IMG/VR virus record: IMGVR_UViG_3300020424_000002
Span: 64,001 to 128,000 of that record
Strand: one strand, 5' to 3'
From: a virus
DNA: 64,000 bases
Under the pieces are notes generated by a model, which saw only the letters and a program-made list of their open reading frames with translations, did not search any database and had not been told where the DNA came from. Positions within the stretch are counted from its first letter, which is position 1. Every line of letters starts with the position of its first letter. Below are positions 3,222 through 63,729 of this stretch, piece after piece. A program made the translations under genes and the position numbers.

Positions 3222-3820
3222 TCACTATATTTGAAATTGATATCACTATGATGTTGCTCATCTGCTCTGACCTTTTTGATTAGGTCTGAAAGCTTTGCAC
3301 TTTTTTTCATCCCATAGTATTCTATTGCAAGTTGTGGTGCTGGGATGTTTTCTACTTCACCACTTTCTACCATCTTAAGGTATTCTGTATATGACTTTAC
3401 TGCTTCTTCTTCGAAGTAATGTATCATTCTATGTGCAGTCTTGGGGAAGAACACATACAGTATAAAATAAAATATCCAAAAGATTGCCTGTGCAAATAAC
3501 ACTAACCATCTTTCAAATACATTTGGTTTGGTAATTTCTATGAAAAACATAAGATGCATTCTTTCATTCTCTGCCTCTGCAAGAAGTTCTCTTATCATAG
3601 GGCCATACCCTGTTTTCATTTGTCTAAGACTTGTTAGGTGCATCCACATACCAGCAACCATGCCAGGCACACCAGCAACTGTTTCTAGGACAACTGCACG
3701 ATGTCCATACCTCTTTGCAAAAAATGTATCTGCAACAAAACGAAAGAACTTCGTCATTGACATTGCAAACCAATCTGATACTTTATTCATCCTTATGCAT
3801 TTTAATGAATGCCTCTGCAT
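3212..3820 (-). CDS. aox: Alternative oxidase (ubiquinol oxidase); start probably ~3790
   Basis: All four diiron motifs: LETVAGVPGM, EAENERMHL, FEEEA.SY, RADE.HH. Confidence 0.93.
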   Translation of the reverse strand: MQRHSLKCIRMNKVSDWFAMSMTKFFRFVADTFFAKRYGHRAVVLETVAGVPGMVAGMWMHLTSLRQMKTGYGPMIRELLAEAENERMHLMFFIEITKPNVFERWLVLFAQAIFWIFYFILYVFFPKTAHRMIHYFEEEAVKSYTEYLKMVESGEVENIPAPQLAIEYYGMKKSAKLSDLIKKVRADEQHHSDINFKYSEGL

Positions 3821-4118
3821 CTATAACCACTAATGGTTTATGATGATTCTTTTTAATTACGACTATGGGTTCATAGTCCCCAGAATTCTCTAGTGCTTGC
3901 TTGTACGACTCCCAGACATTGACTCGTTCTTGATTTTTACATTCAATTGAGTAAGGAAATTTCTTCCTTGCAGCTCTTGCCATAATGAGGTCTTCACCAG
4001 AAGCACCCATAGACCTACTTTCAACATCTTCTTCATGTATTTCTAATTCCTCAATGAGTCTCTCACGAGTCCATTTTTGTAAATTTCTTCCCTTTGCCTT
4101 AGCAGATTGTACCTTCAT
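3783..4118 (-). CDS. PD-(D/E)xK nuclease, Hjc-like Holliday junction resolvase
   Basis: KAKGR...GEDL...SIECKNQE. Confidence 0.7.
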   Translation of the reverse strand: MKVQSAKAKGRNLQKWTRERLIEELEIHEEDVESRSMGASGEDLIMARAARKKFPYSIECKNQERVNVWESYKQALENSGDYEPIVVIKKNHHKPLVVIDAEAFIKMHKDE

Positions 4119-4329
4119 TCACTTTTTCCCATGATATAATTGTGTCCCACTCAATGTCATCCCACTTTGAGTTTTCAACATCCCAAACTACAACTTTATT
4201 ACTTTGTACACTTTGTTTTGCTGAATGTCCTTTATAAACTCCAGTTATATTCCTACCAGAGTTTAAAGAACGAAAATCTATTTTAACTTTAGATGTTTTT
4301 AATGCATCTAATATTACCTGTCTATTCAT
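4099..4329 (-). CDS. Small SH3/WYL-like protein
   Basis: IDFRS.NSGR...VWDVE...W pattern. Confidence 0.55.
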   Translation of the reverse strand: MNRQVILDALKTSKVKIDFRSLNSGRNITGVYKGHSAKQSVQSNKVVVWDVENSKWDDIEWDTIISWEKVNEGTIC

Positions 4330-4495
4330 CGAAGTCTAACTCCTCGTTCATATCAAAATCATCTTCTATTTTTAATTCTGAACCACAAAATGGACAAAAT
4401 TTAACTTCATATCCATCACCCAACTCATGTTCTATATCACCTTCTGCACCACACTCTAAACAATAAAACGACTCCACAAAATCTGGGTCTTGCAT
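4322..4495 (-). CDS. Acidic zinc-ribbon protein (57 aa; not in ORF track)
   Basis: CLECG...CPFCG with acidic tail; GGAG SD. Confidence 0.75.
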   Translation of the reverse strand: MQDPDFVESFYCLECGAEGDIEHELGDGYEVKFCPFCGSELKIEDDFDMNEELDFDE

Positions 4496-4507
4496 AATTG
4501 ATTCTCC

Positions 4508-4732
4508 TTATTTTTGATTATGCCATGCATATAACTGGTCATAACCACCGATGTTTTCACCTTCTACTCTTATCTGAGGGAAGGTTCTTGCGCCTGGAAA
4601 TTGTTCAAATAACTCTTCCCTAGTAAAGTCTACATCTAATTGTTTGTAGACAAATTCGTATCCTTCTCGTTCACAAAGTTGTTTTGCTTTATCACAATAA
4701 GGACATACTGGTTTTCCATATATCTCTATCAC
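4508..4732 (-). CDS. nrdC: Glutaredoxin
   Basis: CPYC, TFPQI, IGGY motifs. Confidence 0.93.
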   Translation of the reverse strand: MIEIYGKPVCPYCDKAKQLCEREGYEFVYKQLDVDFTREELFEQFPGARTFPQIRVEGENIGGYDQLYAWHNQK

Positions 4733-6290: not shown

Positions 6291-7272
6291 ATGGTTTACC
6301 TGTGATAGGGTCTGTTAATGCAGAATTTCCATATGTCCAATATGTTTCTGCACTTTGTATTGCATCATTTGCCTTATTCCATTCTCTACTTGCCTTACTA
6401 CCTACTCCATGATATATTGATGGTCTACCATCATATTTTAATATAGGAAAGTCTCTATGCATTGGCCCATCTTTATGCAAATAATGTATAAAAATTTGTC
6501 TTGCACTATCTCCAGCAAGTCTTTCTCTCCAATGTATTACATTACTTCCTTGATAAAATAATGCATCGCCTGGTTCTAGATTTACTGGTATACAGTTTTC
6601 TCTCTCATCAAAAGGACTTCCCATTGTTAAATCCCATGATGTGGTATTATCCATTCCACAATAATTCATATCATTACGAACCCATATTGTCCATGGTTTA
6701 TTATCATCGGTATCATATGATATAGGAAAAGTTGCACTAAATTCACATGATGGTCTATCAGTATGACTTAGTAACCTTGAATGTCTGTCATAAGTTCTTC
6801 CATATGAATATGTTGGAACTAATCGAACACCAAATAAGTCTTCAATTTTCTTTTGATACATTAAAAGAATTGTTTCTCCATAATTTGGAAAAGGCATTCC
6901 TTTACTAACCCATGTATCTAATCCTTTACCTTTATCATCAAAGTTTTCTGAAATAATATGTTCTTCACGATAATATTGTTTTCGTTGTTCTTGGAACTTA
7001 AACATATGTTCAGTCCAATTAATGTGAGACTGACTAAAGAAGTCTCTTGCAACAAAAAATCTATTCTTTGCAAACGAATAACCTTCCTTGGTTATTTCTG
7101 GTGCATCCTCTGGATGGTCTGTCTCTGGGTTGAAGATTTTATTTCTTCCTTCAACTGATAGATTATAGTTTCTTAAAATTCTTTCTTGAATTTGTTTTAC
7201 ACTTTCAAGATGTTGTTCTTTTCTTTGTTGTTTTTCTTCTTTACTTACTCTTGCAAATTCTAAATGGCGCAT
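6262..7272 (-). CDS. 2OG-Fe(II) oxygenase between nrdA and nrdB
   Basis: PTYSY.R.Y, HTDRPSCE, GDA..Y.G...HWRE. Confidence 0.8.
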   Translation of the reverse strand: MRHLEFARVSKEEKQQRKEQHLESVKQIQERILRNYNLSVEGRNKIFNPETDHPEDAPEITKEGYSFAKNRFFVARDFFSQSHINWTEHMFKFQEQRKQYYREEHIISENFDDKGKGLDTWVSKGMPFPNYGETILLMYQKKIEDLFGVRLVPTYSYGRTYDRHSRLLSHTDRPSCEFSATFPISYDTDDNKPWTIWVRNDMNYCGMDNTTSWDLTMGSPFDERENCIPVNLEPGDALFYQGSNVIHWRERLAGDSARQIFIHYLHKDGPMHRDFPILKYDGRPSIYHGVGSKASREWNKANDAIQSAETYWTYGNSALTDPITGKPCGKGYEKYE

Positions 7273-11158: not shown

Positions 11159-11492
11159 TTTCTATACTCTCAAAAACTTGTGCAGTACCATCGTTGATTC
11201 TTTTTTCAATCATTCCTGGCTTTGCAATTGCAAGTTGGTTTAAATTATGTCTTCTAAAAATGTCTAGATATTGATTCATTTCTTCTTCAATCTGAGCATT
11301 TTTTTGCATCATTTGTTGTAAGGATTTACCTTGTAATTCAAATGATTCTTTCATTGCAGTCATGGCTGCTTGTTGTTCCTCAACTGCACCTTCAAGTGCA
11401 AGGTTGTTTGCAGTTAATGTTTGGTTTTGATTATAAAGATAAAAGGTTGCAAGACCTAATATCAATATAATACCCATGAACATTTGATTCAT
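11097..11492 (-). CDS. Probable i-spanin
   Basis: N-terminal TM followed by a long coiled coil; adjacent to a lipoprotein. Confidence 0.6.
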   Translation of the reverse strand: MNQMFMGIILILGLATFYLYNQNQTLTANNLALEGAVEEQQAAMTAMKESFELQGKSLQQMMQKNAQIEEEMNQYLDIFRRHNLNQLAIAKPGMIEKRINDGTAQVFESIENDSKELDSLDDPSADINPNN

Positions 11493-11711: not shown

Positions 11712-12062
11712 TTATAACTCCTTTATTATATAGTTCAGTCCAGCTGCACTTCTATATTCTACAACCTCATCATCTTCGGTTGTAAACTTTAAATGTTTTT
11801 CTTTCTGTACTGAAATCTTTTTCACTATATAACTTTTATCATCTGCATCACCCCATTCTTTGTTGAATGATACTGTCACTTCATATCTTGTTCTGAATAA
11901 GTCTATAAACCACCAAAATGCAAACTTAATCCATTCCCAAATTTTAATTATCCACTTTCGCACTTGCTCTCCACTGATAACATGACCAATATCTTGCTTT
12001 CCATTTAGGGCCAGGGTCTGAACAATTATGTCTTGCTCTAAATGACTTTCTTCGTTCTGCAT
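11712..12062 (-). CDS. Hypothetical protein (true start probably near 11960)
   Basis: Trp-rich amphipathic N-terminal part, beta-rich C-terminus. Confidence 0.55.
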   Translation of the reverse strand: MQNEESHLEQDIIVQTLALNGKQDIGHVISGEQVRKWIIKIWEWIKFAFWWFIDLFRTRYEVTVSFNKEWGDADDKSYIVKKISVQKEKHLKFTTEDDEVVEYRSAAGLNYIIKEL

Positions 12063-13038
12063 TATCTCTGTTTATACCCATGTTAGGGTCTCCAAAACGA
12101 ACCACTACGACTTTTCCTTTCTCATTCTTTACATAGACCTTAAACTTCTTGTTAGGGTTCTCAGAAGTCCTTATAGGGTCGTTTAGTGTAACTTTCTTAC
12201 CTTGATACTCTGCTTCTGTAATTACATGGTCATAATATCCTAAACATTCTGCACAACATTCTTCTTGAGCTCTTTTGATTTGGTCTGCTGTAGGAGCTCC
12301 TTTTTCACCCTTTTTCCTCATCTTCTCACCAGAACCAGCTTTAATTCTTGCCTTTTTCTTTCTGATATTGTCCCAGAGACCTTCGTCTAATTCATCATCA
12401 CCTAATTTTAAAAACATTCTATTTTTAATTTGTTTTTTATCGGATGCAGTCATTCCTGCTTGTTTTGCAAGAGAGTTGATAAATGCAAGACCATCTTTTT
12501 CATTTGCTTTGTATCTCCTACCCATTTCTTTCTTAAGACCATTTGCAATTATGTCAAGAACATGAGATACATTTGTCACTATCCTACCATCTGTCATAAG
12601 TCTTGCCTCATTTACAGACTGTAGTGAACCTTTTAAAACAACTTTTTTCTTTTCTTTTTCTTTGTTTTTTACAAGAGGTGGATGTTCGTCTTCGTCACCA
12701 GCAACAATCATACCTATTTGATTTATTAAAGATGTAACTACTGGTGTGGGTAATTGTGATAATTGTTGCATCACATCTTTAGATAGACCTTTTACATTTT
12801 TTAGTTTCTTTTTCCAAGAAGAGATTGCAGTCATATCTTTTTTTCTTGATTCATTCATTGACTGACCAGGCGTATCATCCATATACCTTTTCAAAAGTTC
12901 TGGTGTTCCTACTTCTCTATAACCAGAGTCTTCTTTCTTTTTCTTTTTACGAACAATAGGTTTATCAGTAGAAACTGCAGCTCCAGTTGAGTTTACTGGT
13001 GCGTCTTCGAACATTTCTTTAAACCTTTTTATTTTCAT
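11944..13038 (-). CDS. Modular basic protein, putative capsid-internal polyprotein (C-terminal DUF6321-like)
   Basis: MKIKRFKEMFE leader; modules separated by xNE/LDE/ITE; KVYV...RFGD...RKSFRARH.C...YWSC. Confidence 0.65.
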   Translation of the reverse strand: MKIKRFKEMFEDAPVNSTGAAVSTDKPIVRKKKKKEDSGYREVGTPELLKRYMDDTPGQSMNESRKKDMTAISSWKKKLKNVKGLSKDVMQQLSQLPTPVVTSLINQIGMIVAGDEDEHPPLVKNKEKEKKKVVLKGSLQSVNEARLMTDGRIVTNVSHVLDIIANGLKKEMGRRYKANEKDGLAFINSLAKQAGMTASDKKQIKNRMFLKLGDDELDEGLWDNIRKKKARIKAGSGEKMRKKGEKGAPTADQIKRAQEECCAECLGYYDHVITEAEYQGKKVTLNDPIRTSENPNKKFKVYVKNEKGKVVVVRFGDPNMGINRDNAERRKSFRARHNCSDPGPKWKARYWSCYQWRASAKVDN

Positions 13039-17465: not shown

Positions 17466-18458
17466 TTATGCCATACTTCTTTTTATTGCACCCAGAGCTT
17501 TCATAAAAGATTGTTTGTTCTTCCCTAATAATTTGATTAGTTGTACTCTCATTTGTGGTTTTACTCTATCTAGTGCCATGTTAATTATTTTTGCATTTTT
17601 TTGGGTTACCTTAATTGTTTTACCATCGTCTAGTTTTACATCACTACCAGTTCTTAAATCCTCTGCACCTTTAAGTTGTACTTGAAGATTTTGGTCTGGG
17701 TCATTTGCACGAGGGCCTAACTTTTTAACTCTATCCCTTTGTTGAATAAAGTCTTTAATATTTTGTGAGATATCTTTATCTGGTTCAAAATCTGTATACT
17801 TACCAGCACCGACTGCTTGTGCAAACTTTTTACTTGGTGTTGATGACCCTTTTGCAAAGTTTACTATTTTATTCATTGCATCTTTAAAGTCTTTTGCTTT
17901 ATTTGCAATGTCTCTTATTTTATTATTTGCAGCTGGACTGTTTGCACCAAAGTCATGAAATGCACGAGCTTCATATGCAAGAACTTCTCCATACATTTTT
18001 TGATAGTCTTTAGTATACTTAGACTTACGCATAGGTTCTTTTCTTGCTTTTTTATCGCCTGGTGCATCTTTATATGCAGATGGGTCTGAATCAGATTTTT
18101 CTTTTCCTCTTTGGAAATGTGCATCTCTTTTGGACTTAGTAGATTTTTTGAGACCTTTAAAATACTTTGCTGGTTGAGTTCCTTTTTTATCTTTGATATC
18201 TTTGTCTTGAGGTTCTCTTTCCTCATCTCTGAGACGAGGTTCAGTCCTGTTATACTTTTGTGTAACTATTGAAAGATTTGACTTATCGTTATTCATAGGA
18301 TTACCATCTTTATGATGCACATCTTTACCAACAATACCTTTGGTATCTTTTAGTTGTCTTCGTGCATGATTTCTACCAGCTCTTCTTTTTTTCTGTTCTG
18401 GTTTAGAATGGTAGTTTTCGTATTCTTTTTTGTAGTTCCTTTCTTTGAAAGTCTCCAT
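17466..18458 (-). CDS. Modular protein with N-terminal HNH-like nuclease domain
   Basis: RNYKKEY...RR..RN.ARR...KDVHHKDGNP.NN..SNL.....NR; METFKE leader. Confidence 0.65.
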   Translation of the reverse strand: METFKERNYKKEYENYHSKPEQKKRRAGRNHARRQLKDTKGIVGKDVHHKDGNPMNNDKSNLSIVTQKYNRTEPRLRDEEREPQDKDIKDKKGTQPAKYFKGLKKSTKSKRDAHFQRGKEKSDSDPSAYKDAPGDKKARKEPMRKSKYTKDYQKMYGEVLAYEARAFHDFGANSPAANNKIRDIANKAKDFKDAMNKIVNFAKGSSTPSKKFAQAVGAGKYTDFEPDKDISQNIKDFIQQRDRVKKLGPRANDPDQNLQVQLKGAEDLRTGSDVKLDDGKTIKVTQKNAKIINMALDRVKPQMRVQLIKLLGKNKQSFMKALGAIKRSMA

Positions 18459-18467: not shown

Positions 18468-21065
18468 TTAGAATGAACTTATAACATCTTTGTGATTTGA
18501 ATACTTACTTGATGATTGTCTCATGAGATTATCATAGATTTGACCTCTGGTTCTCATTAATCCATCTGGCATGTGACCGAGTGCTTTGTGAGTCATCATA
18601 ATACCTTTTAATGCATCTAGTCCTTTTTTATCACCAAGAAGTTTTGCAAGATGCATTAATGAACCAGTGTGGTCATTTCTATCTGTCATTTTTTTAATCT
18701 TGTTGATATCTGCAGCTGACATTTCTTTTTTCTCTACAAGTTCTTCGATACCTTCTTTGATATCTTCTATCTTCTGATGCCACTCTACCATCTCATCTGT
18801 ACCTTCTTTATAGAAGATTGCTTTCTTAGTCACTGGGTCTAATCCCATGTACTTACCTTTGAGAGAAGGCATCTTAACACCAATGTCTCTTAACATTGCA
18901 ACCATCTTATGAAGTCTTTCCCAGTTTGCTGGTGGATGTTTTTGTTTCCAGATTTGACCCATTAATTTGTCAATACTTTTCTCTGGGTCTTTTTCATCAA
19001 ATGGTAGTTTAGTCATCTTTGCCATCATCTTACCAAATGTTTTAAGTTTAACAACATTTGCTGGTGATAGGTTTTCAATCACTACATGATGACCTGTAAA
19101 TTCTTTTGATTCGTTTGCATGTCTAAGTGCAAGTTTAACTGCTGGATTCTTAGATAATCCTCTTTTAAGTTTTTCTATTTCTTTGATTGCATAGTTAGTT
19201 GCACCACTTAAATCAAGTGCAAGTTCAATTGCTTTCTTAACTGTTTTATCTCTTGCAGCTGCTTTTTGTTTTGGATTGTCTCTGTAATATTTGTTTATTT
19301 CTTGACCTGTAAGTTTAGATTTACCCATCTTAGATAGTGGGTCTAACTTACCATCTTTGACTCTTTCATCTATTTTCTTACCATCTTTATCATACTTACC
19401 AGACTTTTTCTTTGCAATTGCAATTGCAGCTTGTTGTGCAAAGTTTTTACCTTTACCTTCTGATACTTCTTCTCGTATTTTTTCCATACCTTTTGGATTT
19501 TTAGTCACTATATCTCTCTGAGATAATATTTTTATTAAATCTTTGACCTCATCTGGTGCAATCATAAAACTTTCATTTCTAAATCTAATAGAATACATTG
19601 TATTCGGTGCTGGAAAGACAAGATTTATTGAGAATTTACCAGATTTTTTTAATCTAGGCATCGGTAGTGATGTTTTCATTGCTTCCTCAAGTTCTTCACT
19701 TACTGCTTTTTCTAAATCATCTGCTTGTTTTGCATGTTTCTTACTTGCTTTCTTCAACATAGTGACAATCTTTTTCACTACTGGTTTGTCGTCATTATCG
19801 AGTTCTTCTGGTAAAGGTTTTACACCTTGTTGTTTGAACATCTTCATCAAGGCATTGTTAGTTGCAAGTTTGATTTTGTTATCTTTACCCATTGCAACCA
19901 TAGTATTTTTAAATCCTTGAGGATTTTGTTTTTGCATTGCCATTGCAACTTTAACACCAGTCATGTTAAGAAGTTTTGCAACACCATACTGGAACATTTT
20001 ATCACCACCAGTTTTAAATAGTTTGTCAATCATTTCACCAGCAGATGCTTCTACTAGTTCAAAATCTTCTTTTTGCATTGCGAGTTTAGTGTTAAGAGTT
20101 CCAATCATCTTAAGGATTGTATCTCTTGCATCTAAAACTTTTTTGTAATCTTTGTTATGAACTGTATTCTTAAGTTCTTTATCACCCATGTTTGCAATCT
20201 TCTGATAAGCTTTTAAGACACTCTGCATGTCTTTAGAAACCTTTTTCATTGCCTCGACTTCTTGTCTCTTGACTTCATCTAAAGATTCTTTTCTATACTG
20301 TCTCATTAATGAATCTATTTGTTTTTGGATTCTATGATATTCATCACTGTCATACTTGACATCCATCTTTTTATTTCTAAGATTACTGATTCTATCTTTA
20401 ACTGAATCAGGCATAGTTGTTAGTGCTTCTAACATATTGTCATCTGGATGTATGACATGTGCAAGGTCTTTATCGTGATTTAGATTACCTTTTTTCTTCT
20501 TGACTATAAATGCATTTACTCTTGCCATTCCCCACTGCTGTGGAGTAGTTCCTGGCCTGTGTCCTGTTTTCCATGCAGCCATTCCACGATTGTAAACTTT
20601 TCTTAATGTTCCTACTGAGATACCAGATTTTTTAGCTTTAGCTGCAAGACCTTTAGATTCATCTAAATCATTATCTTCCATCATCTTCATAAGAGGTTTA
20701 TCTTTTTGGATGTCTTTCATTAAGTTGTCAATATCTTTGTCATTACCCTTGAAGTTTACATTATTATCATCTACAAATTTACCTTTGGATTGTGTACCAA
20801 ATGTTATTTTAACTTTTGGATGTTTTTTTGCATACTTACTGATTAATGCCTGTTGAATTTTTTTCTTGTTTTTCATTGGTACAGACATCATACCATCTTC
20901 TTCAAGATAATCTAACCAATCATTGATTTCTTCGTCACGAACATCTTCGATGAGAGAGTCAATTAACTCCTCATTTAAGATATCTTCATTTGGTGTTGCA
21001 TACATTTCTCTGTATGCATCTGCAACAGATGACAGAGTTTTTCTGTTTCTCATGTAGTTTGACAT
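18468..21065 (-). CDS. Large modular Lys-rich protein, putative internal-head polyprotein
   Basis: ~10 short basic modules separated by (L/I/V)xE sites; includes VYNRGMAAW...QWGMARVN module. Confidence 0.65.
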   Translation of the reverse strand: MSNYMRNRKTLSSVADAYREMYATPNEDILNEELIDSLIEDVRDEEINDWLDYLEEDGMMSVPMKNKKKIQQALISKYAKKHPKVKITFGTQSKGKFVDDNNVNFKGNDKDIDNLMKDIQKDKPLMKMMEDNDLDESKGLAAKAKKSGISVGTLRKVYNRGMAAWKTGHRPGTTPQQWGMARVNAFIVKKKKGNLNHDKDLAHVIHPDDNMLEALTTMPDSVKDRISNLRNKKMDVKYDSDEYHRIQKQIDSLMRQYRKESLDEVKRQEVEAMKKVSKDMQSVLKAYQKIANMGDKELKNTVHNKDYKKVLDARDTILKMIGTLNTKLAMQKEDFELVEASAGEMIDKLFKTGGDKMFQYGVAKLLNMTGVKVAMAMQKQNPQGFKNTMVAMGKDNKIKLATNNALMKMFKQQGVKPLPEELDNDDKPVVKKIVTMLKKASKKHAKQADDLEKAVSEELEEAMKTSLPMPRLKKSGKFSINLVFPAPNTMYSIRFRNESFMIAPDEVKDLIKILSQRDIVTKNPKGMEKIREEVSEGKGKNFAQQAAIAIAKKKSGKYDKDGKKIDERVKDGKLDPLSKMGKSKLTGQEINKYYRDNPKQKAAARDKTVKKAIELALDLSGATNYAIKEIEKLKRGLSKNPAVKLALRHANESKEFTGHHVVIENLSPANVVKLKTFGKMMAKMTKLPFDEKDPEKSIDKLMGQIWKQKHPPANWERLHKMVAMLRDIGVKMPSLKGKYMGLDPVTKKAIFYKEGTDEMVEWHQKIEDIKEGIEELVEKKEMSAADINKIKKMTDRNDHTGSLMHLAKLLGDKKGLDALKGIMMTHKALGHMPDGLMRTRGQIYDNLMRQSSSKYSNHKDVISSF

Positions 21066-48237: not shown

Positions 48238-48635
48238 TACTTGTTAACTACTCCGATGTTGTACTTTGGAACTAAATCCCATTCGTTTTTCTCCCTATGT
48301 GGAAGAACTTTAATCTGACTCATTGGTGCAATTGGGTCTTGATGATTATTAGATATAACTTTGAGTAATCCCCATTCTTCTAGAAGTTTTGCAATAGCAT
48401 TTCTTCTACCGATATCAGATTCGACAAAAGAACTATCTTTACCATCAAGTAAAAACAATTCTTTAAAGTGGACAAGGTAGTATTTACCTCGTTTGTGTAA
48501 TATGTGGCAAGATTGGTAAAGTATTTTTTCTTTACGAGATGCAACTCCTATACGAGTTAATGTTTCTTTTACTTTTAGAAAATCATCCTGTTGTTTCAAC
48601 TCTACCTCTACCATATTGGAGAGGTCATAGCTCAT
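48237..48635 (-). CDS. regA: Translational repressor RegA
   Basis: DFLKVKETLTRIGVAS, LYQSCHILHK.G.YY.VHFKELF. Confidence 0.96.
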   Translation of the reverse strand: MSYDLSNMVEVELKQQDDFLKVKETLTRIGVASRKEKILYQSCHILHKRGKYYLVHFKELFLLDGKDSSFVESDIGRRNAIAKLLEEWGLLKVISNNHQDPIAPMSQIKVLPHREKNEWDLVPKYNIGVVNK

Positions 48636-49012
48636 TACTTTCTCCCACCTGTTTTCATTCTCTCTTTCATAATTCCTATTTCCTTTGCAGTAAGAATCTT
48701 GTAATATTCTTCTGCTTTACTCATAGAACAGTCATAATAAGTTTGGATGACTTTCATATCTTCCAACACTCTAGGTTTGTTCCATTTTGCAAACCTTTTT
48801 CTTTTTCTTAAAGTATTTAGGAAATAATGGAATTGTAGAGACGAATCTAGGTGCTTTCTAGAGTTCATTTCGTTAACATACATGATGCAATCTTGATGAT
48901 AAGACAAAGATTTATTAGTAAGAAATGGTGAATATGACCTTTCTGCAATATCATCCACCATGATATCTTTCTTGGAAAAGGTTATTGCAGTTACAAAATC
49001 AAAGGGATTCAT
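48635..49012 (-). CDS. gp62: Clamp loader small subunit
   Basis: Y.PF..N..LS...D....NEMN; RKRKRF.KW.K; KTGG; upstream of regA. Confidence 0.9.
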   Translation of the reverse strand: MNPFDFVTAITFSKKDIMVDDIAERSYSPFLTNKSLSYHQDCIMYVNEMNSRKHLDSSLQFHYFLNTLRKRKRFAKWNKPRVLEDMKVIQTYYDCSMSKAEEYYKILTAKEIGIMKERMKTGGRK

Positions 49013-49529
49013 ATATTCTATACTCTAAATTTCTTCTATCTTCGTTTGAATTATTTTTTATTACTTCTATTTTACCCATAAGATTCATATTCGTCAAGAT
49101 ATTATTTATCTGACTTCTTCTACCTTTTAACCAGACTTCGGACTGGGTATCTCCTCGGTCTTTGTGTCTCTGGTGTTCTATATCAGAATCACAAGTGAGA
49201 ACATAAACAGTTGCATCATAGTTATCAACTAACCATTCAATGTCTTGTCCTCTAAAATATCTATCCCCCTCAATTAGAATGTGTTTATATTTGGGTTGAA
49301 CCATAGTTATAAATTCTCTAAATTGTGGTATAGAACCATGGGATAGTTTATCAGTACCACCAAAAGTTTCTCCTTCTGGATACTGGCCAAGAACTAATAT
49401 ATCATCATGTTCTTGACACTTGAACAATGGCATAGGTTCTATTAGTTTTGGTTTAGGTAAATGAGAAAGCAACCCTCTCATGAGGGTTGACTTTCCACTA
49501 CATGGTATTCCACCAATTAAAGTTATCAT
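48999..49529 (-). CDS. P-loop kinase of the type linked to DNA base hypermodification
   Basis: GGIPCSGKST; LG.Y....FGGTD.LS; EGDR; R...RG..Q...W. Confidence 0.7.
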   Translation of the reverse strand: MITLIGGIPCSGKSTLMRGLLSHLPKPKLIEPMPLFKCQEHDDILVLGQYPEGETFGGTDKLSHGSIPQFREFITMVQPKYKHILIEGDRYFRGQDIEWLVDNYDATVYVLTCDSDIEHQRHKDRGDTQSEVWLKGRRSQINNILTNMNLMGKIEVIKNNSNEDRRNLEYRIYESL

Positions 49530-50515
49530 CCTATAGATTTACCATTTACATCTACTAGAATATCTTCTTTAGATAATCCATGATTTAATGTATCCTTAGT
49601 TGTTATTTGTCCTAAGAATCCACCAAATTCAAAGATATCATGATACTCTTCAGCAAGATGTTGTTTTATCCAATGAATTGTATATTCATATTTTTTTAAC
49701 CAAGCTTTTCTTTGATTTTTAATTCTTGCTGGGTCAACATTTAAAATAAAACCAAAGATTTGAACAGGCACTTGATAACTGTCATATAAGTCAATCATTT
49801 GTTTTATTTTTGAACCAAAGTCACCATCTGACCTTGCAAAACCAATCTGTCCTAAGTCGAGAACATATCCTTTAGCAGGAAAATCATTTTCTTCTAGAAT
49901 TTGATTTGCAATGTTTTGGTCAATATCTTTAACAAAATCATAAGAAGAAAAGTTTTTTCTAAACTTTTTAAAGATTGCAGTTCTTTGTGCTTTTGATTTA
50001 GAAGGTGCTATTCTATCTAAGAAGTCTTTAAGATAAGCATCATCATTCCTTTCACAACATCCTTGTATTACAAGTTGTTTTAAAGCTTGTGCATAATCTC
50101 TATCATCATTATCTTCTGCAATATCATGATACTCATTTGAAAGTATTCCATGTGCAATAGATTCTGCTGGATTGTCATACCGAACTACATCAACAATTAC
50201 TTTAGGTTGATTTAGTTCTTCATAACATTGTCTTCTATTGAACCCTGCTTTTAAATACAGATTATCATCCAGACCCAATTCACAAACCATTACTGGTTTA
50301 GTGTAATCATATCTATGTGATATTGAGTCTTTTAGTTTGTTTACATTAGTTCTTACAGTATCAAATACACGAGGTTGTAAAGAATTATTATCTTTATCCT
50401 TGTATATAATATCTGAAAGTTTTACTAATCTTCTATCGATGTATTGCACACCGACACCATAGTTGGGTTTGAAACCCTTCTTAGACCTTTCGAGGTCAAA
50501 GTTTATATTTCTCAT
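49526..50515 (-). CDS. ParB-like N-terminal domain protein
   Basis: Q.R......V..L..SI...PV.V.......L.AGFNR. Confidence 0.5.
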   Translation of the reverse strand: MRNINFDLERSKKGFKPNYGVGVQYIDRRLVKLSDIIYKDKDNNSLQPRVFDTVRTNVNKLKDSISHRYDYTKPVMVCELGLDDNLYLKAGFNRRQCYEELNQPKVIVDVVRYDNPAESIAHGILSNEYHDIAEDNDDRDYAQALKQLVIQGCCERNDDAYLKDFLDRIAPSKSKAQRTAIFKKFRKNFSSYDFVKDIDQNIANQILEENDFPAKGYVLDLGQIGFARSDGDFGSKIKQMIDLYDSYQVPVQIFGFILNVDPARIKNQRKAWLKKYEYTIHWIKQHLAEEYHDIFEFGGFLGQITTKDTLNHGLSKEDILVDVNGKSIG

Positions 50516-50608
50516 TTGTATTTCCTCATACTAGAAATGTTTATAATATGTTTAAAAATGTTCTCGTCTAATTGCGTTAGTTTAATTCTTAAACTCCAAT
50601 AAAAGTAT

Positions 50609-51613
50609 TTAGGAAAGAAAAGATTCTAAACTTCCCTTTTCTTCATACTTACTTGCATGTGGCCCAATAGGTTTTTCTGATTTACCAGCTTGTCCTTTAG
50701 TTGCAACATGTTCATCACAATACGCAACACACGACAATCTAACTCCATCACCTGTTATTGGAGTAACCCCATGTAATTCATTTGAGTCTGCAATCAAAAC
50801 ATCACCATCGTCAGCTTCAATTGCAATCCCATATCTTGGGAAACATAGATATGCACCCCCAAAATTACCGATTCGAAAAACACACATTGTGGTTAATCCG
50901 AATTCTAAATCCTTTCCATCAAGATGTGCAGACATCTTTGCAGTGCCTTCACTTGAGTATCTATTTGCAGATAAAGCTGTAATTGGAGCTCCACCTATTT
51001 GATATTGTTTTTCAATACATTCATCTGCAAAGTTTCTTTGTAGTTTCCATACTTCTGGAACACCTTTCTTTAATGCTTTTTCATTTTCAATTGCAATATT
51101 TTTTAGTATTTCATACTTAGGTTTGTTTGCTTTCTTTTCCATCCAACCACTTGCACCAATCATTCCAGTGAATCTACCTCTTTTATATCCTATTAGTACA
51201 GAATGTATTGCATTTGCAGATGCAATTCTATTAAACTCACCATTCTTTTTAAGTGGGTAATATGAGTTTGGTGTCCTTAAGACATAATCTTTACCTTCTA
51301 TCAATCCTCGTTTTTTCATTTCCTCTGGGTCAATAGGCCCAGCTGCATTTGCTCTCATGGTTGATACATCATCTATAGAATATAGAGTATCTTTTACTTG
51401 TTGATATATATCACCAGTATATGCATTCTTTACAATACATGCAAGAATAGGTTTATCAAATAATGAACCACTTGGTTTATATACTTTTATGATATCATCT
51501 TTAACTCCAATAGAAGATACAACAGTATCGTAAGAGGTTTCATCCAACCACTTACCATTCCATTTATCGAATGTTTCTTTAAATCCTAAGTCTTTGTTTG
51601 CAGTAATTTCCAT
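50609..51613 (-). CDS. TET/JBP-family 2OG-Fe(II) dioxygenase
   Basis: AHLDGKD (HxD), GG.YL.FP.YG.A.....GDVL..D...HG.TPI, RLS.V.Y; overlaps the C5-MTase gene. Confidence 0.82.
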   Translation of the reverse strand: MEITANKDLGFKETFDKWNGKWLDETSYDTVVSSIGVKDDIIKVYKPSGSLFDKPILACIVKNAYTGDIYQQVKDTLYSIDDVSTMRANAAGPIDPEEMKKRGLIEGKDYVLRTPNSYYPLKKNGEFNRIASANAIHSVLIGYKRGRFTGMIGASGWMEKKANKPKYEILKNIAIENEKALKKGVPEVWKLQRNFADECIEKQYQIGGAPITALSANRYSSEGTAKMSAHLDGKDLEFGLTTMCVFRIGNFGGAYLCFPRYGIAIEADDGDVLIADSNELHGVTPITGDGVRLSCVAYCDEHVATKGQAGKSEKPIGPHASKYEEKGSLESFLS

Positions 51614-52851
51614 GGTTCTAAGATTTGTTTCTTTATCTCCTCTACTATGTAGTACAACTGTAATGGTGCAACCATTAATCCTATTCTTGCACCTTTATCG
51701 TTGTAGTCTCCTGTCATCTTATAATCATTTGGTAATGTCATAAGTCTGACCATTTCTTTTGGTGTGTATATTCTCTTACCACTGTAATGAAAATGATTAC
51801 CACCCATGAACTTTGGTTGACATCCTTGTTCAGTTAAGGAATGTGCTGGAAGATGTTTTGGAACAATTCTTGACATATAGTAAGAATGTTTTTCATCTTC
51901 TGGTTTTAAATGACCATTTTTAATTTGTTCTTGAAACCAAGGTTTAACAATATCATCACCTATTGATATATAAGGTCTGTTACCCATTTGGTCTCTAACA
52001 CCATCTAATCCTTTACATGGCCCACAATGTTTTAAATCTGGGTCTGGATGTTTTTCAAATCCATTTACCCAATGTGATTTTGATGATTCGTTCATTGCAT
52101 CTACAAGATATTCTGCATCTTTAATGTTTTCTTCATCATCTATCAAGTCATCTATGGCTTCACCTATTGATACTCTTCGACTTGTTGGTTCTGGAAACAA
52201 ACCACTAAGACACATAAAGGGTAATCCAATTGCATCTAATACATCATCCCTAACTGCAATAATAAAAACCCTCTCTCTTTTTTGTGGTACTCCATGTTCG
52301 TGTCCTTTAGTAATTTTCCATGTTACTGAGTATCCTATCTTTTCAAAGTCTACAATCATTTTATTAAGATGGTCTCTTGCATAATCCATTGATAGACCTT
52401 TTACATTTTCACATACAATAACTTTAGGCATCATTTCTTCTGCAATTCGTATTTGTTCCCAAGTAAGGTCTTCAATGTTTTGTTGTTTCATTCCATATGC
52501 AACTTTTTCTTGATTCCACCCTTCTCTTTTGGAGCCTGCCATAGAGAAAGGTGGACAAGGTGGTGAACCATCTAAAATGTCTAATTCATATTTTTGAATA
52601 CCTGTCATTTCCATTATACTTTTTCCAGTGACTTCTTTAATATCTTTACATTCATGCACTGTATTAGGAAAATTTGCAAGATAAGTATCAACATGTATTT
52701 GTTGAAACTCATTCATATACTTTACATCACCGCCTGCAAGTTTATATGCACACGATGAACCACCACCGCCTGCAAAAAAAGTAATGTAATCAAACTCTTT
52801 TCTTGCAGAGTTTTTGTGTAAATCATCTAATGTGTATTGAAAATAACTCAT
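51586..52851 (-). CDS. DNA cytosine-C5 methyltransferase
   Basis: FAGGGG, GSPPC, ENVKG, PQKRERVF, motif X (RIG..V.P). Confidence 0.93.
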   Translation of the reverse strand: MSYFQYTLDDLHKNSARKEFDYITFFAGGGGSSCAYKLAGGDVKYMNEFQQIHVDTYLANFPNTVHECKDIKEVTGKSIMEMTGIQKYELDILDGSPPCPPFSMAGSKREGWNQEKVAYGMKQQNIEDLTWEQIRIAEEMMPKVIVCENVKGLSMDYARDHLNKMIVDFEKIGYSVTWKITKGHEHGVPQKRERVFIIAVRDDVLDAIGLPFMCLSGLFPEPTSRRVSIGEAIDDLIDDEENIKDAEYLVDAMNESSKSHWVNGFEKHPDPDLKHCGPCKGLDGVRDQMGNRPYISIGDDIVKPWFQEQIKNGHLKPEDEKHSYYMSRIVPKHLPAHSLTEQGCQPKFMGGNHFHYSGKRIYTPKEMVRLMTLPNDYKMTGDYNDKGARIGLMVAPLQLYYIVEEIKKQILEPWKLLQTKT

Positions 52852-53615
52852 CTTTCATTCATCCATAAATCTGGAAATGGTATTGCTTGATACATTTCTC
52901 CTTCAAGTCCCCATTGAAATTCTATATGTTTTTGTTCAGAAAAATAAATAGATTCTGGAAAAATATCAAATGCAACTGTTACTCTAGGTTTGTCTTCCAT
53001 CCATGGAGACGATGCATGTTGAAATCCACTTGCAGAGTATATTAACATATCATTATAGTCTTGATGCACCACCCACTCACTCTCTGGTTGTTCTGGCCCT
53101 ATTCTATAAGAAGTCGTAGATGGTTCTACATTTGCACAATAGAATCCATGGTAGATATGTGGATGCATATCTTCAATATGTTTATGAAAAGGTATATGGT
53201 CGTATCCTTTATCGTCTTTTCTTTTTGTATAAACATTAAACCATCCATGTATGTAATATGATTCACCAGCTTCTCTTACTTGAGGATTACTATAAAAAAA
53301 TCGATTTAGTTTCCAATAGATATCTGCAAATGGTCTTAAACCAAATGTAAAAGGATTATAGGTATTAAATTTTTGTACTTCTTTTGTATCTAATTCAAAT
53401 TGATGCTCTATTTCTTCTTTAGATAAATCTGCACCTTCTTTAGATGCACGAACATATGCACGAAGATTATTACTAAATTGATTTGGTGTTGCCATCCCAT
53501 CTTCATCATGTGCAAAGTATGGATGATTTTCATTTTCAATACACCAATTAGTAATAAACTCATGGTCTATTTCACAATTTTTTTGTATAAAAAAATCAGA
53601 ACTCTTTAGTTCCAC
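52848..53615 (-). CDS. 2OG-Fe(II) oxygenase-like protein
   Basis: WFN, H.H, HGFY, H...PW...PRVTVAFD. Confidence 0.65.
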   Translation of the reverse strand: MELKSSDFFIQKNCEIDHEFITNWCIENENHPYFAHDEDGMATPNQFSNNLRAYVRASKEGADLSKEEIEHQFELDTKEVQKFNTYNPFTFGLRPFADIYWKLNRFFYSNPQVREAGESYYIHGWFNVYTKRKDDKGYDHIPFHKHIEDMHPHIYHGFYCANVEPSTTSYRIGPEQPESEWVVHQDYNDMLIYSASGFQHASSPWMEDKPRVTVAFDIFPESIYFSEQKHIEFQWGLEGEMYQAIPFPDLWMNER

Positions 53616-53793
53616 TTCTATCCTCGTATTCTAGTTTAACAATAACATGGTCGTTTTTTCTGACACCTTGATTATAAAGGTGTGTATACATTTCATTTGC
53701 ACCTTTTCGTATTCCATTATATTCTCCCCATGAGTATATAGCAAAAAACGAAATGCAAAGAAATATAAATGTAATAGTTATTTCCATCGACAC
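53596..53793 (-). CDS. Small membrane protein
   Basis: N-terminal TM. Confidence 0.55.
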   Translation of the reverse strand: MSMEITITFIFLCISFFAIYSWGEYNGIRKGANEMYTHLYNQGVRKNDHVIVKLEYEDRSGTKEF

Positions 53794-54710
53794 TCCATCA
53801 TTAATTCAGTTAGACAAGCAACGATATTCACTTCTTGGTCAACTACAAATGCAGACTTATAACTGTAATCTGCAATGATAATTACAGCCTGTGGTATACT
53901 TTGTGGTTCTAATACATTGTAAAGTGTATCGTAAATCTTTCTAAATAATTTTACTGGGTCGTTGTCGATATTAGTTGCAACCCATTTTCTCATATCTGTA
54001 AATCTTTTTGCTTTGATATGACCAAGTAATTCTTGGAGACTTTCTTCTGCAATATTAGATAGTATTCCTACATCTATCTTACCACTTACTGCATATCTTT
54101 GTAGTTCATTAATGGTTCTACGAAAGTCTGGAAAATATTTCATAACTAATTCTTGTAGAACTTCGTTATTATATTCCACACCTTCATCGTCAAGAATCAA
54201 CATAAGTCTTGCAAGAAATACAGATGCAAGTCTTGGTCTTTCCTTTGGTGGTATCTTAAAGTCAATAACAGTGCATCTTGAATGCAAAGGTGCAATCAAT
54301 CTGTTTTTATAATTACATGTAAAGATAAATCTACAATTTTTATGAAACTCTTCTATGAATCCACGAAGAGCTGGTTGAGTTGATTGTGGATTAAGATAGT
54401 CAGCCTCATCAAGAATAACTACTTTGTTTCCACCACCAAGTGAAACTGTAGATGCAAAGTTTTTGATTTTGGTTCTTAGAACATCAATACCACTTTCCTC
54501 AGAACCATTGATTAAAATATAATCACAATTGTGCATTTCACATAATGCTTTTGCAATTGTAGTCTTACCTGTACCTGCTGTACCAGTAAGAATCATGTTT
54601 GGTATTTCGTCTTTGATATCAAAGAAAGTTTGTTTGATATCAGCTGGAAGGACACAATCCTCTATTGTTTTTGGTCGATACTTTTCAACCCATAAGAAAT
54701 CTTCATTCAT
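53778..54710 (-). CDS. gp44: Clamp loader large subunit
   Basis: LWVEKYRP, GTGKTT, DEADYL, SRC, PDFRR. Confidence 0.96.
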   Translation of the reverse strand: MNEDFLWVEKYRPKTIEDCVLPADIKQTFFDIKDEIPNMILTGTAGTGKTTIAKALCEMHNCDYILINGSEESGIDVLRTKIKNFASTVSLGGGNKVVILDEADYLNPQSTQPALRGFIEEFHKNCRFIFTCNYKNRLIAPLHSRCTVIDFKIPPKERPRLASVFLARLMLILDDEGVEYNNEVLQELVMKYFPDFRRTINELQRYAVSGKIDVGILSNIAEESLQELLGHIKAKRFTDMRKWVATNIDNDPVKLFRKIYDTLYNVLEPQSIPQAVIIIADYSYKSAFVVDQEVNIVACLTELMMECRWK

Positions 54711-61367: not shown

Positions 61368-61373
61368 GTAAGT

Positions 61374-61478: not shown

Positions 61479-61489
61479 ATCATTATTTA

Positions 61490-61770
61490 GTAGAATTATC
61501 TCCATTTGTTCTAGGGTAACACCCTATTCTATCACCGAGTCCTTCTAGTGAGGCCTTACCTCAATTTTATCTAGGTCAATAGGCAGTGACCATAATGTGA
61601 CTTCGTTTTAACCCAATCCCACCACTACTAATGGATTTCATGGAATCATTTCAAACTATGGGGATATCTGCTGGAGTCTTGTCATTTTACAGATTTTAAA
61701 CGATATCCTCACTTCGTTTTTTCTCCTCTCAACCAACCTACCAACACAACGAGGAGTTCAATCACACGAT
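61490..61770 (-). ncRNA. Candidate ~280-nt multi-hairpin ncRNA
   Basis: No ORF; own promoter; at least five hairpins; repeated AAAACGAAGT. Confidence 0.55.
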
Positions 61771-61775
61771 AGAAT

Positions 61776-61805
61776 ATTATATGAAATTATGTACCTATGA
61801 GTCAA
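61776..61805 (-). promoter_or_regulatory. Class A promoter
   Basis: TTGACT-catAGGTACAtaatttca-TATAAT. Confidence 0.85.
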
Positions 61806-62598
61806 TTTTTTCTATATTAAAATAGTTTGCCCACCACTGTCTAACTGGTTCAGATGATGCTGTAGTATTAGTTGTTGATGGGTCTGGATTAGGTATTAAA
61901 TCTCTCCATCCACCTTCTTTATTAGTACCTTGCGTACCATGGGATTGTAGTTCCATTTCTTCTGCTTGAGTTGTATACCATATTGGTGCAGTATACCTAT
62001 CTTCTCTAGTTCCATCTACATTTGCTGGTTTGACACCATGAAAATGTTTCATACTTTCAAATATTACACATGTTCCTTGTTCTGGTTTTAAAACTGTACC
62101 ATCTTCAAAATATGTCTCACCACCTTCAAAGTTGTCGTTAAGATACAAGATAGATGCAAAATCTGTAAATGGAACTACATTAATAACATCCTCTTCATTC
62201 TCCATAAACTCTAAAGGAGTTCCTTTTCTTGTTTCTATTGGAACTTCATATAATGGTTTTGCCATGACATCAATATGCATTTCTTGACCTTTACCAGATG
62301 GCCACCACATAAGTTCTGATTGTTCTGGATATGCTCTTTGACCATAGACTTTCCAGATTTCTGATATTGCTTTGTATTGATATTCTGCAAGGATTCTTTT
62401 GACTTCTAAATTACGAATACTGACCATAGGTATCCTACGACCATTGTATTGTTCAGCTGCATCATCGTGTGTAACTAGATTAAAATTAATCTTGTGATAC
62501 TGTATCAGTTTCTTGCACTGTTCCTTCGTCAGGCAGTTTGGGATTGTTGCGATAATGTTCTCTGGCAATTTGTATAAATTGTTCTCTTGCTCTTGCAT
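61795..62598 (-). CDS. 2OG-Fe(II) oxygenase (prolyl hydroxylase-like)
   Basis: HID, ILYLNDNFEGGET.F, HGV, RYT. Confidence 0.85.
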   Translation of the reverse strand: MQEQENNLYKLPENIIATIPNCLTKEQCKKLIQYHKINFNLVTHDDAAEQYNGRRIPMVSIRNLEVKRILAEYQYKAISEIWKVYGQRAYPEQSELMWWPSGKGQEMHIDVMAKPLYEVPIETRKGTPLEFMENEEDVINVVPFTDFASILYLNDNFEGGETYFEDGTVLKPEQGTCVIFESMKHFHGVKPANVDGTREDRYTAPIWYTTQAEEMELQSHGTQGTNKEGGWRDLIPNPDPSTTNTTASSEPVRQWWANYFNIEKIDS

Positions 62599-63097
62599 AT
62601 TGCTTTTCTCTTTTCTGTTTCTTTTTCATTGCTCTTTCTAATTTTAATCTAGAAAGATAATCTATAAACAGAACACCTTGTAAGTGGTCATACTCATGTT
62701 GAAAACATCTACATGTCATACCACTAAATTCTAATTCTTTTAATTCTCCATGTTCATCTTGCCACCTTGCACGAATCCAACTAGGTCTGGAGATATGTGC
62801 AAAAATTCCATCACAGCCTGGAGTAAGACATCCTTCTTCCATTAATACAGTATCTTCTGATACTTCTAGTATCTCTGGATTTGCAATGAACATAGATTGT
62901 TCTTTGTTTGCACCTTTCATTACAAATACTGAACAGTCATACCCAACTTGATTTGCAGATAATCCTACACCACCATTATCAAACATTTCATCTATTAATT
63001 CATTTCTTAATTCAATAGGGTCTTTAAGTGGTTTATCAAAATCAAAAAATTTTGTTTTAGTTCTTAATAGTGGATGGTCTTTATGTAATAGTTTCAT
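62486..63097 (-). CDS. def: Peptide deformylase
   Basis: GVGLSANQVG, EGCL, QHEYDHL.G. Confidence 0.93.
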   Translation of the reverse strand: MKLLHKDHPLLRTKTKFFDFDKPLKDPIELRNELIDEMFDNGGVGLSANQVGYDCSVFVMKGANKEQSMFIANPEILEVSEDTVLMEEGCLTPGCDGIFAHISRPSWIRARWQDEHGELKELEFSGMTCRCFQHEYDHLQGVLFIDYLSRLKLERAMKKKQKREKQYARAREQFIQIAREHYRNNPKLPDEGTVQETDTVSQD

Positions 63098-63729
63098 GGT
63101 GCAATGTGTCTAAAATTGTTGTTTAAATCTATCCATTCATACCAACCAGTGACAACATATTTAGTTTCACTAATTGGTGGATTTCCTCTATGGATATGTG
63201 TATAGTGTGCAGGCCACACTAAGAAATCACCCTTTTTTGGTGGATATCTTAATTTTTGATTCAAAAATTCTGTTTCTCCACCCTCTTCAATATCATTAAG
63301 ATACAACATCCATGCAAGGACTCTTGTAGAATTACTAGGTGATTGTTCACAATGCCACACATGATATCCTTCGCCTGGTTGAGTTTTTTGTATTTTACAA
63401 TCAATTGCCATTGGTCTATCAAAGCCTGGATACTCTTTCATGTAACATTCTAAGATATCACCATTTATATACTTTAAAAAATCATGAAATTTATCATCAC
63501 CCATTATTTCATCATCTTTACTTGGTACAGCTGGTTGCATATGATTAAAACAAGTAGAGGTGTCAGCTTTTTGCAATTTAGTACCATCATCATTTTCTTG
63601 TCTTGTACCAACTGCTCTTACTGATTCACAAAACTTATAGTAGTTTATAAAGTCTTCTATGTGTTCTGGTTTAAACCAATTTTGAAAATGACCGATGAAA
63701 TCAGTATATTCTACTTTTCGTTCTTCCAT
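63094..63729 (-). CDS. 2OG-Fe(II) oxygenase
   Basis: GYHVWHCE, MLYLND..EGGETEF, WPA..TH.HRGNPP, KY..TGW. Confidence 0.88.
   Translation of the reverse strand: MEERKVEYTDFIGHFQNWFKPEHIEDFINYYKFCESVRAVGTRQENDDGTKLQKADTSTCFNHMQPAVPSKDDEIMGDDKFHDFLKYINGDILECYMKEYPGFDRPMAIDCKIQKTQPGEGYHVWHCEQSPSNSTRVLAWMLYLNDIEEGGETEFLNQKLRYPPKKGDFLVWPAHYTHIHRGNPPISETKYVVTGWYEWIDLNNNFRHIAP

Follow-up and report, generated by a model that had tools for sequence, protein, structure and literature searches.

Does a phage that carries its own enzymes for cytosine modification leave the specificity of those enzymes written in its genome? The question is raised by a 64,000-nt stretch of viral DNA (hereafter the window; bases 64001-128000 of IMG/VR record IMGVR_UViG_3300020424_000002), which encodes a predicted C5-cytosine DNA methyltransferase (MTase) beside a TET/JBP-type dioxygenase and in which CCWGG sites occur only where they overlap a GC dinucleotide. 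A preliminary description of the window had proposed that such restriction-type sites are kept only where the phage's own GpC modification falls inside them. The full record (G000) comprises 146,136 bp at 34% G+C and has a gene set of the T4-like myovirus type, including gp45, gp44, gp62, RegA, and DNA polymerase, with nearly all genes on the minus strand. Its nucleotide matches are short only, to pelagiphage HTVC008M, the OM43 phage Melnitz, and cyanomyoviruses.

CCWGG sites overlap GpC on at least 1 strand

We identified exactly 15 CCWGG sites in the window and 49 in the whole record, and all of them (15/15 and 49/49) were flanked by a G on the 5' side or a C on the 3' side, reading GCCWGG on one strand, as the preliminary description had claimed for the window. 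To obtain expected counts, synonymous codons were shuffled within each of the 171 called open reading frames (ORFs), with proteins and per-gene codon usage preserved, in 1191 shuffles. Under this null, 51.0 unflanked sites (HCCWGGD) were expected (sd 4.3, shuffle minimum 39) and 0 were seen, and 15.6 flanked sites were expected (sd 2.8, shuffle maximum 26) and 49 were seen. Unflanked CCWGG is eliminated from this genome, and flanked CCWGG is 3 times over-represented; the codon-preserving count upholds the bias first noticed in the window. The accompanying estimate that about 30% of sites should overlap a GC agrees with the flanked fraction of ~31% given by base composition, and it was generous compared with the 23% given by the shuffle and the ~14-17% given by local NCC context. 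Genome-wide, GCC accounts for 6% of NCC and GGC for 8% of GGN.

Sites with only a C on the left or a G on the right were absent, with 0 seen against 11.9 expected in G000 and 0 against 16 in Melnitz. Because these flanks never rescue a site, the rule is specific to GpC and does not reflect a longer, W-flanked recognition site; a 7-bp target, WCCWGGW, is ruled out by the same 2 counts. In the window, sites with a G on the left were located at 4592-4598, 6568-6574, 12010-12016, 18057-18063, 23131-23137, 23167-23173, 62816-62822 (outside ORF calls), 63373-63379, and 63424-63430. Sites with a C on the right were located at 11214-11220 (outside ORF calls), 12865-12871 (ACG CCT GGT on the coding strand), and 20550-20556 (AGG CCA GGA on the coding strand). 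Both flanks were present at 3662-3668 (GCCAGGC, with Pro-Gly as GTG CCT GGC on the coding strand), 25508-25514, and 39328-39334. The sites outside ORF calls, 4 of the 49 in the record, were likewise flanked.

Codon choice and protein sequence

In G000, 44 of 45 genic CCWGG sites were in-frame Pro-Gly, and the other 2 CCWGG reading frames were nearly emptied. The Gly codon GGC was found in 111 of 3179 cases (3.5%) overall and in 37 of 44 (84%) after CCA or CCT. CCW-GGD pairs were always preceded by a G-ending codon (7/7 in G000 and, in the related genomes G004 and G005, 11/11 and 10/10), although such codons make up 10% of all codons in G000. The earlier statement that Pro-Gly is written CCW-GGC or placed after a G-ending codon fits these counts, and 1 of its examples, AAG-CCA-GGA, needs correction, as the codons are actually AAG-CCA-GGC. 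That either flank suffices is a feature of the DNA duplex, which translation does not share.

Pro-Gly dipeptides were 2.4-2.6 times rarer than expected from amino-acid frequencies, with 45 against ~112 in G000, 44 against ~107 in G004, and 34 against ~88 in G005; in HTVC008M they were not rare (117 against ~104). Site avoidance appears to have altered protein sequences through this loss of Pro-Gly. At Pro-Gly positions orthologous to those of G000, the flanked spelling was used in 20/20 cases in G004, 16/16 in G005, and 8/8 in Melnitz, and in HTVC008M, which lacks the cassette, 12 of 13 were unflanked. The reverse dipeptide, Gly-Pro, is spelled GGS-CCN, and GGSCC is for this reason 4 times above expectation.

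Other avoided words and probable shielding contexts

Several short words besides CCWGG were absent or nearly purged from the genome. Zero copies were found of GATC (388 expected), ACGT (213), GGWCC (62), and GTGCAC (16), and in 3 of these, GATC, ACGT, and GGWCC, the cytosines cannot sit in GpC. CCGT was reduced to 11 of 225 expected copies, CCTCC to 4 of 108, and CCTGA to 22 of 210, and the survivors were G-preceded in 11/11, 4/4, and 19/22 cases. The H-prefixed forms of CCGT numbered 0 against 209 expected and the G-prefixed forms 11 against 16; the corresponding values were 0 against 101 and 4 against 7 for CCTCC, and 3 against 194 and 19 against 16 for CCTGA. Likewise, 11 of 13 CCTGCA survivors were G-preceded (H-prefixed 2 against 71, G-prefixed 11 against 4), 12 of 13 CTGAAG survivors were flanked on either strand (unflanked 1 against 64), and 33 of 34 CTGCAG survivors were flanked (unflanked 1 against 27, flanked 33 against 19). 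CCGG and CGWCG had 0 unflanked copies, with 2/2 and 3/3 flanked, respectively. Overall, the H-prefixed forms were at 0-4% of shuffle expectation, mostly at or below 2%, and the G-prefixed forms at 0.2-3 times expectation. An unbiased scan of all avoided 4-6-mers ranked a G to the left of a C-initial word top in each of 4 genomes, which carries the pattern noticed at CCWGG over to avoided words in general.

Both orientations of the same word were purged from the coding strand, as identified for CCTCC and GGAGG (1 against 19 and 2 against 87 expected), CCTGA and TCAGG, and CCGT and ACGG. CCACC, CCACG, CCTCG, and CGACC were not depleted; because not every SSWSS word is avoided, the targets of avoidance are discrete, and a single SSWSS-type target is ruled out.

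The rescuing contexts can be read from these words. GCC rescues CCWGG, CCGT, CCTCC, CCTGA, CCTGCA, and CCGG, and GCT rescues CTGAAG (on both strands) and CTGCAG. Rescue by GCG was weak, with CGWCG flanked in 3/3, 2/2, and 1/1 cases in 3 genomes and in 0/1 in Melnitz. No rescue by GCA was found: GTGCAC is absent from 9 cassette genomes (described below), and CTGCAG and CCTGCA, each with a GCA inside, are spared when a 5' G precedes them and are otherwise avoided. The contexts suggest that shielding acts in GCC, GCT, and probably GCG and that GCA is apparently unshielded, though a nuclease indifferent to modification at that position would look alike. GGCC, GGSCC, and AGCT, which contain GCY, were avoided by HTVC008M and not or only mildly avoided in cassette phages.

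We also observed that TGCA (under a GCB rule, the one GpC tetranucleotide with no modifiable cytosine on either strand) was present at 1.5-1.6 times shuffle expectation in G000, G004, G005, and 5 further cassette genomes (G011-G015), at 1.19 times in Melnitz, and at 0.81 times in HTVC008M, and that GCT and GCG contexts were depleted in cassette phages. The TGCA excess could come from deamination decay of methylated GpC (comparable to the loss of CpG in vertebrates) or from selection against modification load.

The modification cassette of the window

In phage T4, gp44 and gp62 are adjacent. In the window, 5 genes sit between gp44 (53778-54710) and gp62 (48635-49012), and this cassette spans 48999-53615, with all 5 genes on the minus strand. 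The island is headed, right after gp44, by a gene for a 255-aa protein (52848-53615), which was kept in all island variants of the clade and was absent from Melnitz and G011-G015. It is followed by the C5-cytosine DNA MTase of 421 aa (51586-52851), the presumed GpC[B] writer, which matched PF00145 with E = 3e-49 and 168.7 bits over profile positions 2-324 of 324. The third gene encodes a TET/JBP-type 5-methylpyrimidine dioxygenase of 334 aa (50609-51613; PF12851, 43.7 bits against a cut-off of 34.9), and its ORF overlaps the MTase stop on the same strand (51586-51613). These 2 matches establish the MTase-TET pair that the preliminary description had taken as its premise. A 329-aa protein (49526-50515), conserved only in the closest relatives, and a P-loop nucleotide kinase 3 (48999-49529; PF18751, E = 2.5e-7), a candidate 5-hydroxymethylcytosine kinase, complete the cassette. 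The 255-aa and 329-aa proteins had no family in Pfam or PHROGs.

The PF00145 protein was the only DNA methylase detected in the record, and searches with PF01555 and PF02086 (N6/N4, Dam type) identified no second one. The closest solved structure was 8YF3 (SpCmoX, a GC-motif C5-carboxymethyltransferase; E = 3e-68). The window MTase shares the GSPPC motif of 8YF3, and its Leu392, within a G-x-M-V motif, aligns to CmoX R350. Replacement of this carboxymethyl-binding arginine by Leu392 fits a methyl donor and the pairing with a TET enzyme.

Relatives with and without the cassette

We scanned IMG/VR with gp44 (80 loci) and with the MTase (70 more), and near-identical overlaps were removed. In 55 loci with an MTase or TET gene (676 kb; MTase identity 53-99%), CCWGG was unflanked in 3 cases and flanked in 101, whereas in 32 cassette-less sister loci, where gp62 lies beside gp44 (287 kb), it was unflanked in 155 and flanked in 61. 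The flank rule thus tracks the MTase/TET pair (3/101 against 155/61, Fisher p = 8e-36). All 3 exceptions sit in L164:1-4000, together with that contig's only 2 GGWCC and only GATC, and this segment may have been acquired recently or may be the chimeric end of a contig.

Nine large genomes carrying both MTase and TET were compared, namely G000, G004, G005, G011-G015, and the cultured Methylophilales (OM43) phage Melnitz. Across them, unflanked CCWGG numbered 0 against ~464 expected and flanked CCWGG 376 against ~156. Unflanked CCGG, GGWCC, GTGCAC, and unflanked CCTGCA were absent or nearly so in 9/9, whereas avoidance of GATC, ACGT, CCGT, CCTCC, CCTGA, CTGAAG, and CTGCAG was genome-variable, with G-flanked survivors wherever these words were avoided. 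In G012, for example, 42 CTGAAG were found, of which 0 were unflanked against 45 unflanked expected.

Melnitz (MZ577097.1, L194:4010-8090) harbors homologues of the MTase (55%), TET (53%; gene 6, annotated as a hypothetical protein), and P-loop kinase (54%; gene 8) right after its DNA polymerase gene. The paper describing Melnitz mentions a 'type II DNA methylase' as possible protection only and notes neither a TET nor site avoidance. At the kinase position, G004 and G005 encode a TAGT (PF20691) with or without an epimerase. Because the footprint is the same while the tailoring genes differ, shielding probably rests on steps shared among the cassettes.

HTVC008M has no MTase homologue, and its CCWGG counts (112 unflanked and 24 flanked) were close to the 104 and 26 expected. 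This phage (L100-L102) avoids a set of words of its own, with seen and expected counts of 83 and 319 for GATC, 108 and 318 for ACGT, 22 and 79 for GGCC, 153 and 422 for AGCT, 1 and 17 for GGSCC, 0 and 13 for GTGCAC, and 5 and 54 for CGWCG, and its surviving CCGG copies fit avoidance of WCCGGW. The comparison with relatives bears out the predicted link to the cassette as far as HTVC008M and the 32 sister loci are concerned; it does so incompletely, since some cassette-less partial contigs keep the rule, as discussed below.

The gap between gp44 and gp62 is a swap site for DNA-modification modules (L025:11087-16400, L006:3882-6061, L136:12237-13752, and L130:12402-13196). The versions identified were MTase-TET-unknown-kinase and MTase-TET-(epimerase)-TAGT; 2 glycosyltransferase-like genes with DruA-like, cytidylyltransferase, and endonuclease VII genes; and a lone 468-aa N6/N4-MTase-like protein. 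In the gp44-gp62 gap, the 255-aa gene always comes first. Within an otherwise cassette-less group with 67% gp44 identity, contig G009 (L117-L118; also L062) carries a TET homologue (45%) at its end, upstream of gp44, and, unlike its sister contigs, lacks GGWCC and has only flanked CCWGG (7, with 0 unflanked). The corresponding methylase would lie past the contig end.

A shielding model and its alternatives

We propose that GpC[C/T/G] modification shields the sites that it overlaps and that every unshielded site is purged, and we give this explanation a probability of about 0.75. The phage C5-MTase would methylate GpC cytosines after replication, in GCC, GCT, and probably GCG and not in GCA; the adjacent TET would oxidize the methyl group; and the kinase with its unknown partner would probably tailor the oxidized base further. 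Site-specific nucleases, most likely host restriction enzymes, would then select away each uncovered copy of the targeted words, mostly through synonymous substitutions but, at Pro-Gly, in part through altered proteins. Copies with a G before the first cytosine on either strand would be tolerated, and even used as an escape spelling; one modified strand would suffice. Because GpC steps hold about 1/8 of the cytosines in the genome, most restriction-type sites would be left uncovered, and the uncovered words would have to be purged. The analysis shows the word counts, the choice of codons, a cassette in the record, and the link between cassette and rule across genomes; from these we infer that the DNA is modified at G-flanked positions, that cleavage is blocked there as a result, and that hosts encode the nucleases.

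The original suggestion that sites persist only under the phage's own GpC modification gains support from the cassette, from at least 8 other words, from the restriction of rescue to GpC, and from the association across loci (p = 8e-36). Its core, GpC shielding, remains the best available explanation, with the contexts now narrowed to GCC, GCT, and weakly GCG, without GCA, and the targets widened to many motifs besides CCWGG. If the model is correct, phage DNA would carry the marks in vivo, and these would help it to survive site-specific nucleases; where coverage falls short, the genome itself would have been recoded around the marks, to the point of taking up rare codons and losing Pro-Gly 2.5-fold. 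The footprint would then be a route to the context preference of a methylase from sequence alone (here GCB, not GCA) and would also list the nuclease specificities facing an uncultured phage lineage. The model can be tested at the bench, because the rule holds in the cultured phage Melnitz, which grows on OM43 strain H5P1 (Methylophilales).

Several observations weigh against this explanation. Modification in this phage and its relatives is read from the footprint in their sequences, and CCWGG, CCGG, GGWCC, GTGCAC, and CCTGCA are avoided in 9/9 genomes, which is more uniform than strain-variable host restriction. G001 and G006 (one phage, 54.7 kb), G007 (47.8 kb), and several shorter contigs have no C5-MTase or TET in the available sequence; their island is occupied by other genes, among them the 2 glycosyltransferase-like, DruA-like, and cytidylyltransferase genes or the N6/N4-MTase-like gene. 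They nevertheless obey the rule, with 0 unflanked against 7, 7, and 12 flanked CCWGG, and have lineage-specific flanked sites, as seen in G007. These contigs share 81-86% identity with the cassette genomes closest to them and are 19-26% complete, and IMG/VR holds no longer contigs with their island; their methylase may be encoded elsewhere, as in Melnitz, or the island swap may be recent. It is mainly because of these contigs that our confidence stops where it does. In addition, GCAGCA/TGCTGC is cut to 5 copies against ~100 expected in G000 despite containing GC, all 5 being A-preceded (genome positions 24203, 44126, 123887 [window 59887], 135912, and 145419), and GC-containing GCTA (211 against 517) and TAGCTA (2 against 17) are depleted as well. 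The shielding model leaves the depletion of these 3 words unexplained. The survivors also include rule-breakers, namely 3 TCCTGA, 2 CCTGCA not preceded by G, and 1 CTGAAG. In Melnitz (L194-L197), GTCTTC/GAAGAC is reduced to 15 copies against 76 expected, 15/15 of them as GGTCTTC; because this flank dependence involves no GpC, the true target there is probably a longer word.

That one core of words is avoided in all 9 genomes raises an alternative in which the shielding is the same and the nuclease is encoded by the phage or linked to the cassette, shredding unmodified host DNA, so that the genome is purged against its own weapon. We consider this unlikely. In its favor, the core (unflanked CCWGG, CCGG, and CCTGCA, together with GGWCC and GTGCAC) is the same in 9 genomes that diverge to 53% identity in gp44 and 55% in the MTase, avoidance of GATC, ACGT, CCGT, CCTCC, CCTGA, CTGAAG, and CTGCAG is genome-variable, and the Melnitz host is a streamlined OM43 strain. 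The cassette, however, contains no nuclease gene, its variable part being a kinase, TAGT, or epimerase, and a single phage nuclease would need at least 5 unrelated specificities. Eight G000 ORFs are common to Melnitz and G004/G005 and missing in HTVC008M (2 large proteins, the MTase, the TET, a 2-oxoglutarate oxygenase, and 3 small unknowns), and none has a recognizable nuclease domain; no nuclease co-distributed with the cassette was recognizable among them. HTVC008M, moreover, avoids many short words without any cassette. Slightly more doubtful still is the fuller claim that the core words are targets of a nuclease brought or switched on by the phage and that GpC marks and a purged genome together serve self-recognition. 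If true, it would amount to restriction-modification logic in which modification and cleavage follow different motifs and the mismatch is made good by the genome sequence.

It is less probable again that the rule does not come from GpC modification by the cassette and reflects either extended nuclease sites that exclude a 5' G or another protector shared by the clade, such as a host GpC methylase or an unrecognized phage enzyme. The island variants without MTase/TET in 48-55 kb, which keep the rule and keep gaining flanked sites, would fit this, and some flank effects are independent of GpC (GGTCTTC in Melnitz, WCCGGW in HTVC008M, and ACSGT in G004). Against it, the same base would have to be excluded at position -1 in at least 9 unrelated words, rescue comes from G-left or C-right only and never from C-left or G-right, and the rule tracks MTase/TET across clades with the p value given above. 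Within the lineage with 67% gp44 identity, it is found only in the TET-carrying contig G009. Melnitz and G011-G015 obey the rule and lack the 255-aa gene, which alone among the island genes is retained in the variants. A mere by-product of composition, codon usage, codon-pair preference, or avoidance of Shine-Dalgarno-like words, with no effect at the DNA level, is very improbable. Nearly all CCWGG sites are one dipeptide in one frame, and GGAGG is a ribosome-binding word, as such an account would have it, but the synonymous shuffle never fell below 39 unflanked sites in 1191 trials, the 4 sites outside ORF calls are flanked too, and the sufficiency of either flank is a symmetry of the duplex and not of translation. 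Together with the purge of both CCTCC and GGAGG from the coding strand (1 against 19 and 2 against 87), these results contradict Shine-Dalgarno avoidance and codon-pair preference, and HTVC008M spells the same conserved Pro-Gly positions unflanked.

Comparison with known systems

Phage C5-MTases paired with TETs are known to methylate GpC[C/T]; one clade acts on GpC[C/T/G] and not GpCA, another on any GpC, and the TETs follow (Burke et al. 2021, PMC8256090). The claim in the preliminary description that TET/MTase pairs act at GpC agrees with that work, which also noted a P-loop kinase family beside phage TETs. With these clusters the window shares an MTase gene overlapping a Tet_JBP gene and followed by a tailoring enzyme (here a P-loop kinase; in G004/G005 a TAGT with or without epimerase), and the published class acting on GpC[C/T/G] and not GpCA matches the contexts that rescue sites here. 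The 2 cases differ in that metavirome genes were expressed in Escherichia coli there and the context was deduced from the genome here, and that a kinase with an unknown 329-aa protein after a 5-methylcytosine-type pair is not among their characterized pathways. The follow-up study considers modification limited to GpC and placed after replication unlikely to protect genome-wide, and it describes the choice between phage and host DNA as substrate of the enzymes as not known (bioRxiv 10.1101/2023.12.21.572611). We found no mention of site avoidance in PMC8256090 or in bioRxiv 10.1101/2023.12.21.572611, and the footprint bears on both the protection question and the phage-or-host substrate question raised in the latter.

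For SpCmoX of Synechococcus phage S-B43, specificity for a GC motif was shown on phage DNA by nanopore sequencing (PDB 8YF3; PMC12783734). It shares the SPPC catalytic motif with the window MTase and is its closest solved structure, but the window MTase lacks R350 (Leu392), and its neighbors are a TET, 2 unknowns, and a kinase, not CmoA (Cx-SAM synthase). In S-CRM01, a 36%-identical enzyme lies beside a gene annotated as a methyltransferase-domain protein, with no TET, and 41 kb contain 30 unflanked and 15 flanked CCWGG; showing no TET, CCWGG avoidance, or flank rule, S-CRM01 is uninformative as a distant comparison. The window enzyme may also differ from a pan-GpC methylase of the M.CviPI type, which modifies all 4 GCN contexts, as GTGCAC is at 0 in 9 genomes and GCA words are avoided, although a nuclease insensitive to modification there would look identical.

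Classical restriction-site avoidance is known from phage genomes, as is its relaxation at sites that a phage methylase covers; short palindromes and type IIS-like words become scarce, and methylase-covered sites escape this loss. The pattern described here shares with classical restriction-site avoidance that short words fall far below a null preserving proteins and codon usage and that both strands are affected. It differs in that the methylase acts on a dinucleotide-level context, which coincides with the targets only in part, and in that avoidance is conditional on one flanking base, site by site, reaching codon choice and dipeptide frequency. A similar effect is familiar from cloning, where overlapping Dam/Dcm methylation blocks a restriction site only when the flanking base completes the methylase motif; there it is a laboratory nuisance in single plasmids, whereas here it is a genome-wide evolutionary rule. 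A limited full-text literature search found no report of conditional, flank-dependent avoidance. The cassette is a member of a known family, and what is new is this conditional, flank-dependent form of site avoidance.

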